Positions 1,190-64,000 of a DNA stretch of 64,000 nt are shown in pieces (the first letter of the stretch is position 1; every line of letters starts with the position of its first letter). The notes under the pieces are model-generated. The model worked only from the letters and a program-made list of their open reading frames with translations, did no database searches and was not told the origin of the DNA. The stretch spans positions 384,001-448,000 of the forward strand of contig CM000436.1 of the NCBI GenBank assembly GCA_000165345.1. Direction: 5' to 3'. The translations under genes and the position numbers were made by a program.

Positions 1190-1290
1190 TTCTTCTATCC
1201 ACATGCAATTGCGTGTTTGCATTTGCATGCATAAAATATGTAATTGCACAAATACCGGTATGTAAGAAAAATCTTATGTGGACAAAAAAA
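1190..1290. promoter_or_regulatory. Composite intergenic motif cluster (TCCACATGCAATTGCG ... GCATTTGCATGCAT ... ATACCGGTATG ... ATGTGGACA)
   Basis: Read directly in the sequence. The same module of GCATGC + ACCGGTA + TGTGGACA recurs in at least 8 other intergenic regions of this window. Confidence 0.5.
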
Positions 1291-1403
1291 TGATATTAAC
1301 GGGTTCATTGAGATAATTTTTTTTTCTTTAAAAAAAAATTAGTTAATAATTGATATAGTAATGAACATATGAAAAATATGAGTTGATAAAGAAAAACGAA
1401 CGA

Positions 1404-61600: not shown

Positions 61601-64000
61601 AAAATCCACCGTATCACAATCTTGTATTTGTTCATTATTAATCTGGCTCATATAATAGCTAAAATAATTATCATTATATAATGAAATTGGTATCCATGGG
61701 TAACTTGATAATATTTCATTCAAAAAAGATGAGTTATATGAACGTCTTGAATATTCATTAGCTATTTGGATGATTGCTCCAGCTCTCATTACATAAATTA
61801 AATGTTTACAATAAAAACAATGCGATGAACTAATTGGATAAATATTTCTATCAACCATCCAACTCAATGGAGATGCATCTGTTTTTGGAGGTAATCTATC
61901 AAAGTTACATCCTACATACCACTGTTCAAGAAGGTTAATAAATTTATTAGTGAATACCCTGAATGCCAAATCTTTATCATTCTCATTTAAATGATCCGAA
62001 TTTTGGACGATATAATCTGATGATATCTCCACAAAGTGAAACCTATCAGATACTTTTGGAAATACCCATTCAACCAATGGAGGCCATAAAGGAGGGACAA
62101 TCGTCAAACCTTTGTATTCAAATGATTTATCGGAATTATATATTGAAGTTTTGTCTTTAACATTTTTCCGATTGCTATTTGATGTTTTTAGTTGGTCAAA
62201 ATTTGAATATGACTTTGAACTAAACTTATTGGACCTTTCCCAGCTTGAATGAAGTAGAATTAAAGATGTCAATGACTTGCTTACCTGAGACATTCTTAAA
62301 GCTACAGAAGTAGGATACACCATAACCTCATTTTCTCTTGTTTCATTCTTGCATCTATTACACTTCAAACTAGATGTGATCATTCTAGAACACCTAGCCA
62401 GTTTGTTCTTGTTTAACAACTCTTCTTCATTTGCATAGCTTTTTGGTAGATCCTTATTGTAAAGTAAAGCCTTTAAAAATGAAGGAGAATAAGTCTGAAC
62501 TACTATTGGAAGCTTAATTAGAAAGCGATTATCATCCTCTACAATGCTTGCCTCCTCTATTGCCAAAGGAGTAATTTTGAGAAGTAGTTTCTGTATATCA
62601 CTATTAATTGCATTTTCCCATCCTTTTTCGAGTAATAAATCAACCTGTTCAGCAATTAATTTAAAAAAAATAGATGGAGTTATCTTCTCAATCTTAAAAT
62701 CTTGGTTAATCATGCTCTTTATTCTGTATGGAGCTATTTTATATACCCTATCACTAAAAAATTCAAATGGGCATACTTTTCCTATTATTTCGGAATACTT
62801 TTGCAAGCAATGTTCTTGAAAGTAACTATCAAACGATTCATCTGAAATGTAAACTTTCACAATACTCGATTTTTCTATAGAAACTCTCTTACCCTCCCTA
62901 GTAGGTATAATTGGCAAACCTGAAATTCCTTCAAATTCTTTCAAACTTTCCACATCTCCTTCTTTCTGAGGAAATAAATAGCTATATAATATTAATAATT
63001 CCTCATCAGAAATACTCTCCAAAAATTTCAAAGGTTTCAATTCTAAAAAAATCTTCAATATATCCAAATTCCTTACATTATATGATGATATTATTTGTGC
63101 TACCAAAACTTGCAACATTTGCAATGGCCTCGTGCAAAGAAAATGCATGCATGTGTGCCCGCCTATCAGTGAGGGGTGCAATACCGGTCTCATGTGGACA
63201 CTCAGCATGTAGAGAAAATTCCAATGTAAATTGCAAAAAATACAAAAACCTTCATGGAAAGTATTGTTTTTTATGCAAAGATCATTGAATTGAATATTCG
63301 TGGAAATTTTATCAAGAAAGCAAAATGAGCCATCAATGTTCATAAACACAGGCTTTTTGACTAACTCATCAATACAAATCGAAGATAATGTGCAATAGTT
63401 TTGGCATTGGTTCAGGTTGTCAAGTTTTGGCGGGAGCCAACTAAATTTAATAAATTCTGAAGTATTTAAAACGAATGGTTTTAAGTTGTAATCAAAGCTT
63501 GATTCCTGCATTGTTTGTAACGGCAAAGACTTTGAAGTGAGTAAATTACTCATAAAAAGAGAATATTTTTGGTTAATTAAGCAAGATTTTCTTGAGCATG
63601 ATAATTTTGGATTAATCATACTAGCAACAAATTGTGGGATTTGTTTCTTGAAAATAACATCAAGAATTGTAGAATTCCAGATATTGTCAGCCATGACATC
63701 CTCTCTATTTGCTGTTAAAATCAAATCTTGGATATTAACATGAAATGGAAGATAGATTCTATGGTTCAAAGGGAACGTACAAAACAACTTTCCTGTAACC
63801 CTTTTATGTTTTCCAAAAGTTGATGAACCAAACGAGAATGAAGATGAGTTTATTATCCTTTCACCTTTATCTATTTCAAGTCTCAAATTTGAATGGAACA
63901 AAGGAAGAGCAATAGACCATACTGTTGAAGATCTTGTAGCTCTATCTCTGAGAGTGGAGCTCTCAAGCTTTTGATCCTCTGAAATTGGTATTTCCCAGTC
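58664..64000 (-). CDS. Very large hypothetical protein (more than 1778 aa), 5'-partial: the reading frame stays open to the window edge
   Basis: The track start at 63901 is TTG, not ATG. I translated the 33 codons upstream (63902-64000) on the minus strand (DWEIPISEDQKLESSTLRDRATRSSTVWSIALP) and found no stop, so the N-terminus lies beyond 64000. It is Cys/His-rich near the N-terminal part. I can assign no family with confidence. Confidence 0.6.
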   Translation of the reverse strand, partial: DWEIPISEDQKLESSTLRDRATRSSTVWSIALPLFHSNLRLEIDKGERIINSSSFSFGSSTFGKHKRVTGKLFCTFPLNHRIYLPFHVNIQDLILTANREDVMADNIWNSTILDVIFKKQIPQFVASMINPKLSCSRKSCLINQKYSLFMSNLLTSKSLPLQTMQESSFDYNLKPFVLNTSEFIKFSWLPPKLDNLNQCQNYCTLSSICIDELVKKPVFMNIDGSFCFLDKISTNIQFNDLCIKNNTFHEGFCIFCNLHWNFLYMLSVHMRPVLHPSLIGGHTCMHFLCTRPLQMLQVLVAQIISSYNVRNLDILKIFLELKPLKFLESISDEELLILYSYLFPQKEGDVESLKEFEGISGLPIIPTREGKRVSIEKSSIVKVYISDESFDSYFQEHCLQKYSEIIGKVCPFEFFSDRVYKIAPYRIKSMINQDFKIEKITPSIFFKLIAEQVDLLLEKGWENAINSDIQKLLLKITPLAIEEASIVEDDNRFLIKLPIVVQTYSPSFLKALLYNKDLPKSYANEEELLNKNKLARCSRMITSSLKCNRCKNETRENEVMVYPTSVALRMSQVSKSLTSLILLHSSWERSNKFSSKSYSNFDQLKTSNSNRKNVKDKTSIYNSDKSFEYKGLTIVPPLWPPLVEWVFPKVSDRFHFVEISSDYIVQNSDHLNENDKDLAFRVFTNKFINLLEQWYVGCNFDRLPPKTDASPLSWMVDRNIYPISSSHCFYCKHLIYVMRAGAIIQIANEYSRRSYNSSFLNEILSSYPWIPISLYNDNYFSYYMSQINNEQIQDCDTVDFCEDLLLSRPSELFIPKINKNLDGIIKHISQIVLNLLPVTLRNGYKIPKSRENNEPCSAHYTLNRTEEDIGNESKLISETLEEVGVTTQISSISLIRILRDYKRVMNIRDNEVVQKSRQIKLKPSYDPDLNHIIELAIFGFGITKEKLFASDWWPSLMDEWSNFDDNSLNRSLHRPSDIEMISDIYHILGHQTDFDISMNIKKVFYNESLLYIPLMKSTLYNWVPIDYNNMVWSDPYDFFHGTFIVLSKFINKSKISNLRPFFLSLVSEQPIHHHYAYLWLRECPNLLKDESKEGKIKFESFINVSINTFLKVFQKMSQSKKNSWWSEFLDNAKIPIKGIYKFLKREQCCVEDFPIGSLRSDSFQIPLAISSSPSSQFFYKDILKVKTLSECYKVTYKVNYGRNIRSHIKFANKGKNKIWLTLEFWGILILLFKHKSLDIYLSIMRILEEKKTFDSEQSLTSKNSNHSVTDCEFCVSESEILEQISNSYEFEPLSVSERYSNANEEIAYQIANWLISFVNTYEVEVDDIELKFDLNINDKHLPKTSRRKIGVLFRQIPNKNSASILLVNKSMDKSNQLKDLYTLLLDPLKGLTGLNSIINIDLYELLILSSSQRLLLLSKHVPILDDLSSKRDERFTVDNVVKEGFELLKKCSRSGCLLRKDTDIENKSLHVEKNDLLSELSIKRVDYNKADNNDPHIKVKNNNTGDYKEMTKNTDVIESNLDSIIKEYIKKNPLSLGNATDESLTIEEITKMVGFWGEKVSFEAIIPNAISRKLTLKSIDHNLIEDYLSRKFVNNYIQNEVIDMEDLKDWTGIEDMKIEDNNIFQDQQRDLFIKCKIKCFKESDTTTIKLIWLNSLNESFLPFDFILLREYFSEEEFSVSRNYKQQVLALIEVKTTKLPIWQFNISGNELLSARKAVDKFKLLIIKDAGSSEPQWALIDDVGGFIQESCTLINGVFEANFSDFCGFNSNTSGVLDNMY
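63141..63201. promoter_or_regulatory. Promoter-like composite cluster inside coding sequence: AAATGCATGCATGTGTGCCCGCC ... AATACCGGTCTCATGTGGACA; an additional TTTTGGCGGGAG lies at about 63425
   Basis: Same GCATGCA + ATACCGGT + CATGTGGACA module as the intergenic promoters, but within the open frame of the 58664..64000 gene. It sits 25-85 bp upstream of an in-frame internal ATG (minus strand, about 63118; MLQVLVAQIISSYN...). Confidence 0.3.

Follow-up and report, generated by a model that had tools for sequence, protein, structure and literature searches.

Two conserved intergenic words, TGTGGA[C/T]AA and CCGGTAT, in promoter regions of a Cryptosporidium parvum chromosome 8 segment

The locus and its over-represented intergenic words

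The window analysed here is a stretch of 64,000 nucleotides of Cryptosporidium parvum chromosome 8 (GenBank assembly GCA_000165345.1, contig CM000436.1, positions 384,001 to 448,000 of the forward strand; positions below are counted from the first letter of the window), which reaches from about cgd8_1390 to cgd8_1610 in the numbering of the supplementary tables of Hasan et al., 2024. Its G+C content is about 30%, and its genes, tightly packed and almost intronless, encode among others a GPAT, a GH31 glucosidase, a PP2C, a sugar transporter, a WDR3-like WD40 protein, RPC5, a formin and a Sec16-like protein; the gene at 45563-46723 is cgd8_1550. The subject of this analysis is a pair of short words, TGTGGA[C/T]AA (word 1) and CCGGTAT (word 2), that recur in the DNA between these genes, frequently close to the known AP2_1 element TGCATGCA, and that are each conserved as a separate footprint in the intestinal clade of Cryptosporidium.

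How strongly are these words over-represented? All 6- to 9-mers of the intergenic DNA, defined as the 12.6 kb left between the mapped open reading frames of the window, were compared with a second-order Markov expectation, with no preselected words. The four leading families were CATGCA/TGCATGCA, E2F words (GGCGCCA, TGGCGGGAA), ACCGGTAT/ATACCGGTA and TGTGGACAA/ATGTGGACA, both words ranking directly behind TGCATGCA and E2F. The 8-mer ACCGGTAT was observed eight times (expected 0.09) and the 9-mer TGTGGACAA six times (expected 0.05) in this intergenic set. In the window as a whole, TGTGGACA occurs nine times, ACCGGT 11 times and GCATGCA in 16 strand-matches as compared with 2.7 expected. An initial annotation of the window had listed a 10-mer at five sites and a variant of it near 1196, and all of these were recovered, the former as exact copies of CATGTGGACA at 8746 (minus strand), 14661 (plus), 18607 (minus), 55558 (plus) and 63191 (plus), with 0.07 expected, and the latter as TATCCACATGCA at 1196-1207. 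It had also listed a near-palindrome at seven sites, four of which carry the exact 9-mer ATACCGGTA (1252, 18534, 34390 and 45255; expected 0.06), but the other three are partial copies, ACCGGTAT at the cited position 14697, AACCGGTAT at 25752 and ATACCGGT at 63182, which agree with the 9-mer in ACCGGT and one flank only. The accompanying statement that both words lie far above chance holds, as none of 100 dinucleotide-preserving shuffles reached either the five copies of the 10-mer or the count of the 9-mer. Equal frequency in coding and upstream sequence, which the same annotation had regarded as speaking against a regulatory unit, is not what is found in the window, where the words are 7-8 times denser in intergenic DNA (8.1-fold over coding DNA for TGTGGACA and 7.1-fold for ACCGGT). 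The intergenic over genic density in other species amounts to 8.5-34-fold for CCGGTAT and 2.4-5.6-fold for TGTGGAC.

The consensus of word 1 derived from its copies is [C/T]ATGTGGACAA with a variant ending in GGATAA, overall [C/T]ATGTGGA[C/T]AA, and is asymmetric; A is the next nucleotide after all six intergenic TGTGGACA copies. For word 2 the copies yield (A)CCGGTAT[A/T]T with CCGGTAT as core, the full form ATACCGGTAT being a 10-bp palindrome. Identical 8-10-mers at many places are also what short dispersed repeats would yield, and the words might in principle be what is left of a dispersed repeat or mobile element, or result from base composition and chance. However, the similarity between copies ends after 10-12 nt, beyond which the flanks are unrelated, and no repeat family of at least 18 nt overlaps any site in the window, so that the words do not constitute a dispersed repeat, the second objection that the initial annotation had anticipated. 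As copies moreover occupy orthologous positions in species with unalignable flanks, and as the shuffled sequences never match the counts, an origin from repeats or chance is extremely improbable.

Conservation and arrangement of the words

Syntenic loci were retrieved via homologues of three window proteins from chipmunk genotype I, C. ubiquitum, C. canis, C. felis and C. ryanae, which belong to the intestinal clade, and from C. muris. In the five intestinal-clade species both words are found again at the corresponding intergenic positions, where they form islands amid promoter DNA that is otherwise unalignable. Exact 8-mers are retained in 15 of 22 comparisons for TGTGGACA, in 15 of 24 for ACCGGTAT and in 10 of 18 for TGCATGCA, the corresponding number for GC-matched 8-mers being about 3. 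Within the intestinal clade of Cryptosporidium, evolutionary constraint acts on both words, and each has a footprint of its own. Neither word is present in 23 kb of C. muris at the one locus examined, and TGCATGCA is the top intergenic k-mer in that locus, too.

The separateness of the footprints can be followed from site to site (Table). Upstream of cgd8_1450 an alignment of six species contains separate conserved islands, AAATGTCATGTGGACAA, ATTACGTGGCGCATGC, ATACCGGTAT and the E2F pair GGCGG..CCGCCAAAA; the TGCATGCA copy at 18839 is not conserved among the compared species. The islands upstream of the formin gene are TTGTCCACACTGGCGGTGACGTAA, AACCGGTAT, CCACGTACCGG and GCATGCA, with flanks that are not alignable, and the core TTGTCCACAC.GG-CG.TGAC is nearly invariant, differing by two substitutions and a 1-nt insertion in C. 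ryanae. Here AACCGGTAT is kept in five of the six aligned species including C. ryanae, and C. felis has a displaced copy. The words of cgd8_1440 are kept in chipmunk genotype I, C. ubiquitum and C. canis and partly in C. felis and C. ryanae. In the divergent region of cgd8_1540 and cgd8_1550, about 50 bp surrounding TATATACCGGTAATGTCA form an island that hardly differs between C. parvum, C. ubiquitum and C. canis, amid neighbouring DNA that is unalignable. C. ubiquitum has the palindrome at 34390 unchanged, C. canis has a degenerate form of it (AATACCGGCAC), and C. ryanae has lost it. Upstream of the GH31 gene, TGCATGCA is followed by ATGTGGAC in the same order in C. ubiquitum, C. canis and C. 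felis. The GH31 interval (2304-9468 of the window) also differs in gene content, since intestinal species have a GH31 gene where in C. muris (L006, 17396-23237) the interval from the PP2C-like gene to the DNA primase gene has no called GH31 glucosidase; in C. felis the matching 4.8-kb stretch (L004, 18250-23110) is without a called gene, yet the promoter words are there.

The cluster at 55.5 kb was formerly about 835 bp away from the next ATG. Between cgd8_1600 and cgd8_1590 (54724-55745, minus strand), a small intron-containing gene was recognised that a plain map of open reading frames misses; its first exon contains ATGGAGAGCAATTTAATTTGCAG and ends at a GTAAGT donor. The gene has conserved counterparts in C. 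ubiquitum and C. felis, and an 83-amino-acid product is called for that of C. ubiquitum (L007, 19467-20099). With this gene the distance from the cluster to the next ATG becomes about 80-130 bp. Read in gene orientation, TGTCCACATG..GCATGCATG..TTTGCCGGTAT..TTGGCGC is common to C. parvum, C. ubiquitum and C. felis, and the intervening CAATTCTTTGCAAGT is found in C. parvum and C. ubiquitum only.

Table. Window positions of the word clusters and of copies within coding sequence
Feature	Position	Gene and strand	Component words	Remarks
cgd8_1390 cluster	1196..1285	minus strand, ATG 689	TATCCACATGCA 1196-1207 (minus strand = TGCATGTGGATA); TGCATGCA 1224-1231; palindrome ATACCGGTAT 1252-1261; ATGTGGACAA 1276-1285	female-specific, log2 fold change 6.1 (Hasan et al., 2024, file S3)
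cgd8_1420/cgd8_1430 divergent-region cluster	8745..8824	cgd8_1420 (GH31), cgd8_1430 (PP2C)	TTGTCCACATGCA 8745-8757; TGCATGCATTGCATGCA 8808-8824	without CCGGTA
cgd8_1440 cluster	14661..14758	sugar transporter, minus strand, ATG 14176	CATGTGGACAA 14661-14671; ACCGGTAT 14698-14705; GCATGCATGCA 14748-14758	
cgd8_1450 cluster	18484..18616	WDR3-like WD40 gene, minus strand, ATG 18383	E2F pair TTTGGCGG..CCGCC 18484-18503; ATACCGGTAC 18534-18543; GCATGCGCCACGT 18565-18577; TTGTCCACATG 18606-18616	
cgd8_1500 cluster	25674..25790	formin, plus strand, ATG 26027	GCATGCA 25674-25680; CCACGTACCGGCGT 25703-25716; AACCGGTAT 25750-25758; TTGTCCACACTGGCGGTGACGTAAT 25766-25790	
cgd8_1520 site	34390..34410	Sec16-like, ATG 34677	palindrome ATACCGGTAT then TACATGCAG	without TGTGGAC
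cgd8_1540/cgd8_1550 divergent-region island	45228..45283		TGCATGACGCAGTA.TTATATACCGGTAATGTCA.AAATGCAAA.GGC; TACCGGTA at 45256-45263	about 50 bp
55.5-kb cluster	55511..55568	small intron-containing gene, minus strand, ATG about 55437	ATACCGGC (minus strand = GCCGGTAT) within 55511-55522; ACATGCATGTATGCATGTGGACAA 55545-55568	80-130 bp upstream of the gene
cgd8_1510 intragenic cluster	29765..29853		CCGGTATT 29765; AATGCATGTAAAATTAATGTGGATAA 29785-29810; GCCGGTATAT about 29823; CATGTGGATAAT about 29842-29853	variant words, variable linker; gene female-specific
Non-element copy of TGTCCACA	46745..46752	cyclophilin gene cgd8_1560, minus strand	last codons GAA TGT GGA CAA	encodes E-C-G-Q
cgd8_1610 intragenic cluster	63144..63200	sacsin-like	TGCATGCA 63144-63151; ATACCGGT 63181-63188; CATGTGGACA 63191-63200	gene female-specific

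The words do not occur independently of each other. Among the 16 promoter-bearing intergenic regions counted in the window, five have both TGTGGA[CT] and CCGGTA, one has TGTGGA[CT] only, two have CCGGTA only and eight have neither (p = 0.035), and GCATGC is present in five regions, every one of which also has TGTGGA[CT] (p = 0.0014). The proximity of the words to GCATGC that the initial annotation had noticed is real: the median distance to GCATGC is 62 bp for TGTGGA[CT], with about 140-155 bp upon random placement, and 30 bp for CCGGTA, with 139 bp upon random placement in the same intergenic regions (p = 0.009). From TGTGGA[CT] to the nearest CCGGTA the median is 51 bp, as compared with 142 bp upon random placement (p = 0.03), with a range of 16-280 bp within the window. 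The distance from the words to the start codon downstream is about 80-600 bp; they are found in either orientation, about 0-100 bp from one another and from GCATGC, and their order varies, being GCATGC-ACCGGT-TGTCCACA at the formin and transporter genes and TGTGGACA-GCATGC-ACCGGT at the WD40 gene; moreover, some clusters lack one of the words, e.g. those at 8.7 kb, 34.4 kb and 45.3 kb. The composite unit proposed in the initial annotation is therefore upheld as far as co-occurrence above independence is concerned but not in its fixed order, spacing and orientation, and variable arrangement together with incomplete clusters indicates a loose group of separate sites and not a single composite element.

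Eight promoters have E2F words only (2304-3404, 21556-21987, 23504-24311, 28931-29322, 38295-38805, 47308-47477, 49191-49846 and 58116-58663); the remaining eight have TGTGGA[CT], CCGGTA or GCATGC, and five of these have E2F words as well. Several additional words also recur beside the clusters, i.e. ACGTG/ACACGTG and TGACGTAA/TGACGCAG (bZIP- or bHLH-site-like) as well as TTTGCAAGT/ATGCAAAT, some of them conserved (14602, 14643, 18574, 25658, 25713, 25783, 34414, 45233, 55585, 45215-45227, 45270 and 55525-55540).

What is the nature of the copies inside coding sequence? The initial annotation had placed a short copy into the 14-bp gap between the stop codons at 46723 and 46738 and had taken it as a sign of a role at convergent 3' ends. 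This copy is in fact coding, as it belongs to the C-terminus of the minus-strand cyclophilin gene, the TAA stop codon of which is at 46738-46740 and the E-C-G-Q motif of which is conserved in all four species, and a role at convergent 3' ends is not supported. The copy at 63.1-63.2 kb, which had been counted towards the promoter module, lies within the coding sequence of cgd8_1610, a protein of 2120 amino acids whose reading frame is still open where the window ends. The WD40 coding sequence contains the TGTGGACA copy at 18103. The peptides that the words specify in cgd8_1610, PVLHP and TCMH, are conserved, and TGCATGCA and CCGGT are each kept in four of four species. Codons such as CCG (Pro) and TGC (Cys) are expected to be uncommon in an A+T-rich genome; both are kept here in all four compared species, which hints at a constraint on the DNA besides that on the protein. 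Within cgd8_1510 the words form blocks of visibly higher conservation when C. parvum, chipmunk genotype I, C. ubiquitum and C. canis are compared (matching loci L010, 843-899; L012, 1190-1225; L001, 1774-1829), the coding linker around them being otherwise poorly conserved, and the annotated upstream region of this strongly female-specific gene contains an E2F site only. This cluster might be an internal or antisense promoter of cgd8_1510. A spurious 5' extension of cgd8_1510, which would make the 29.8-kb cluster its true promoter, was also considered and rejected: the N-terminus is truly coding, because its first 50 codons are well conserved in five species.

Coding regions also harbour the top repeat and inverted-repeat hits of the window, which are GAA/GAG/GAT trinucleotide runs (CTT on the opposite strand) at 48038-48098 and 50040-50221, within two coding regions, where they would encode acidic low-complexity stretches.

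Macrogamont promoters and the possible role of the words

Are the words also found together outside the window? File S6 of Hasan et al., 2024 offers an independent set of promoters, which belong to 65 macrogamont genes distributed over all chromosomes and are truncated at about 390 nt each (about 24 kb altogether). This set contains TGTGGACA nine times, TGTCCACA three times, TGTGGATA seven times, TATCCACA twice, CCGGTAT and ATACCGG 12 times each, TGCATGCA 30 times and GGCGCCA four times. According to a manual tally of 63 independent promoters, TGTGGA[CT] is present in 17, CCGGTA in 19 and both in 12, about five being expected for the latter (Fisher p = 6e-5), and TGTGGAYA is biased towards the sense strand (16:5; p = 0.027). 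The promoter of COWP8 (cgd6_200) has the arrangement CATGTGGACAA .. AATACCGGTAT .. CATGCATGCA, directly followed by TTCATGTGGATAA, and that of cgd6_3280 contains TGCATGCATGCAATTCAATGTGGACAAT..ATATACCGGTAAT. Further full clusters are found at cgd6_4880, cgd3_1540, cgd1_990, CCP2 (cgd7_300), NEK5 (cgd7_5050), cgd8_4290/4300 and cgd8_920, and at cgd7_5130 both words overlap (TGTGGACACCGGTATAT). Compared with the intergenic DNA of the window, macrogamont promoters are about 2.8-fold richer in TGCATGCA, and GGCGCCA is about 5-fold rarer in them, which fits a promoter class distinct from E2F promoters. The additional words ACGTG/ACACGTG, TGACGTAA/TGACGCAG and TTTGCAAGT/ATGCAAAT are also present in several macrogamont promoters, e.g. 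those of cgd6_3280, cgd6_5150 and cgd7_4810.

The promoters of this region probably use two further cis-regulatory words besides TGCATGCA and E2F, which would bind separate regulators within a flexible module. Each word would be recognised by its own sequence-specific DNA-binding protein. The palindromic form ATACCGGTAT suggests that CCGGTAT is bound by a dimer, and the asymmetry of TGTGGAYAA that this word is bound by a monomer or heterodimer. The words are found next to TGCATGCA in about a third of the window promoters, and the proteins binding them would act jointly with TGCATGCA-binding ApiAP2 proteins. Such a module would probably mark a promoter class apart from the E2F-only promoters, a class well represented among late-on genes, including the macrogamont genes COWP8, CCP1/2, NEK5, glycogen branching enzyme and cgd8_1390.

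A number of points weigh against this interpretation. The function of the words is deduced from sequence statistics and conservation alone, and the significance of their retention is overstated, since the compared species share ancestry. The truncation of the macrogamont sequences at about 390 nt may raise the frequency with which any two promoter words coincide. Two of the clusters are situated within coding sequence, where protein constraint alone could preserve the words. Whole-genome studies with MEME, FIRE and DREME name neither word as a main family. The link to a stage is weak, as the two words are only about 1.4-1.6 times denser in macrogamont promoters than in the window, and of the eight promoter clusters in the window no more than one or two precede a gene flagged as female-specific, cgd8_1390 being the sole clear case.

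Alternatively, the words could be sites of abundant general factors that shape promoter architecture, by nucleosome exclusion, as boundaries or by blocking read-through, and do not serve stage activation. General regulatory factors of this kind are known from yeast, e.g. Reb1 with its site TTACCCGG. Such factors would be compatible with words that occupy about a third of the promoter regions beside genes unrelated in function and stage, in both orientations and at varying distances, that in tandem gene pairs are often equally near to the upstream stop codon and the downstream ATG, and that have a density in female promoters resembling that of the window; a ACCCGGTATAGG variant is found upstream of cgd8_1700. 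However, peaks of sporozoite chromatin accessibility, determined by the assay for transposase-accessible chromatin with sequencing (ATAC-seq), were reported to have E2F and poly-T motifs only, where sites of constitutive factors would probably appear. Moreover, the sense-strand bias of TGTGGAYA in macrogamont promoters and the absence of both words from half of the window promoters argue against general factors, which we consider unlikely.

A strictly female-specific signature, which the match to a COWP motif and the cgd8_1390 cluster had brought up, was set aside as unproven, most carriers of the words in the window (the GH31, sugar transporter, WDR3-like, formin, Sec16-like and zinc-finger genes) not being flagged among the female-specific genes listed. 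More speculatively, and with considerable doubt, the separate regulators envisaged above could be specific to the intestinal clade and, jointly with ApiAP2 proteins that bind TGCATGCA, make up the central promoter code of the late or female (macrogamont) programme, comprising oocyst-wall, crystalloid-body, meiosis and polysaccharide genes, in which case the coding copies in cgd8_1510 and cgd8_1610 would be its internal or antisense promoters.

Reviews of 2025 and 2026 describe gene expression in female Cryptosporidium as not understood and most promoter motifs as lacking an assigned factor. The two words provide concrete sequences for the identification of factors and for promoter studies in the existing transgenic system, and the suggested split into E2F and AP2_1/CCGGTAT/TGTGGAYAA promoter classes would help in the choice of surrogate promoters. 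The finding extends the known promoter vocabulary; the type of mechanism is not new.

Relation to published motifs and known systems

The words appear to be real cis-regulatory words beyond chance, one of them, TGTGGA.A, being half-known and the other, CCGGTAT, apparently undescribed. Neither is included in the table of 25 motifs of Oberstaller et al., 2013, and neither is mentioned in the papers on ATAC-seq, on long non-coding RNA (lncRNA) and on female biology. CCGGTAT was not found in the published motif lists (the 2013 table, the 2025 review, the ATAC-seq and lncRNA papers), the 2025 review listing AP2_1, AP2_2, G-box, E2F, GAGA and CAAT only. Searches of the literature text for the words returned only unrelated papers containing primers, although earlier mentions elsewhere are possible.

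An ApiAP2 protein had been proposed as binder of the ACCGGT component. Motifs of C. parvum AP2 domains from protein-binding microarrays comprise TGCAT, CACACA, G-box, GGTGCACC, GCGTGCA, GTGTGT and AAAA, and several domains gave no motif. Going by the published descriptions, none of the 15 published AP2-domain specificities of C. parvum resembles CCGGTA or TGTGGAC, and the authors of the microarray study stated that many of the motifs over-represented upstream of genes do not belong to the AP2 type. An ApiAP2 assignment for ACCGGT is not supported, and AP2 proteins remain candidates through the several domains without a motif. The Grainyhead site AACCGGTT, the Reb1 site TTACCCGG, the DREB site ACCGAC and the Plasmodium female element TGTRNNYACA serve as leads only, and the words are assigned to none of these.

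How do the words relate to AP2_1 itself? Like both words, TGCATGCA (Oberstaller 2013/2014; review PMC12246861) is a short, GC-containing, intergenic-enriched and conserved word that sits in clusters; unlike them, it is known, has several AP2 domains assigned to it and persists in the C. muris locus where the two words are absent. A closer connection is offered by the top DREME motif of the 65 macrogamont promoters, TGCATG(T/C)(G/A), which has been linked to the AP2 protein cgd2_3490 (Hasan et al., 2024; PMC11078545). It overlaps the TGTGGA word, as five of ten TGCATGTG copies in the macrogamont set run on as TGCATGTGGA, with about 5% expected, and the published motif thus in part represents the left edge of the TGTGGA element. 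It could even be proposed that CATGTGGA[C/T]A is an extended or variant AP2_1 site (TGCATGYR) bound by cgd2_3490, cgd1_3520 or AP2-F, which would reduce the module to two components; the frequent continuation into TGCATGTGGA, also seen in the window for three of seven intergenic copies, and the rank of the cgd2_3490-associated motif in macrogamont promoters are in keeping with this proposal. Yet the published motif ends before GGA, whereas the invariant and constrained part of word 1 is TGTGGA[C/T]AA, which is frequently found without the TGCA half (TTATGTGGACAA, TTCATGTGGACAA, GTCATGTGGACAA, CAGTGTGGACAA, CAATGTGGACAA). In addition, the conserved footprint islands span TGTGGACAA, and the published specificity of cgd2_3490 is the palindrome [T/C]GCATGC[A/G]. 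We therefore regard an extended AP2_1 site as improbable and retain the reading of word 1 as a probable site of a separate regulator. TGTGGA[C/T]AA is not of AP2_1 type, TGCA preceding only three of its seven intergenic window copies, and CCGGTAT is without any TGCAT; it is the GCATGC(A) of the clusters that qualifies.

The sites of E2F/DP (TGGCGCCA, TTTGGCGGGAA), the commonest promoter motif of C. parvum, are comparable to the two words in intergenic enrichment and conservation but differ in distribution, as 8 of the 16 promoter regions of the window hold E2F words alone and GGCGCCA is scarce in macrogamont promoters. The G-box (G[T/C]GGGG; Motif 2, DTGTGGGG) has the left half TGTGG in common with word 1, but all copies read TGTGGA[C/T]A and none TGTGGGG.

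The closest likeness concerns an 'unknown motif', A[T/A]G[T/A]GGA.A, that was described upstream of Class II COWP genes by Oberstaller, Joseph and Kissinger, 2013 (PMC3734150). The initial annotation had recognised neither component as established, which stands for CCGGTAT, of which no description was found, but not for TGTGGA.A, which has been on record since 2013 as this COWP motif. ATGTGGACA and ATGTGGATA match its consensus at all nine positions, and the COWP8 promoter contains CATGTGGACAA and CATGTGGATAA. The motif was reported for five COWP genes only and stated to be unrelated to the 25 genome-wide motifs (PMC3734150), whereas in the present analysis the TGTGGA word occurs widely, is kept between species and is associated with CCGGTAT and GCATGC.

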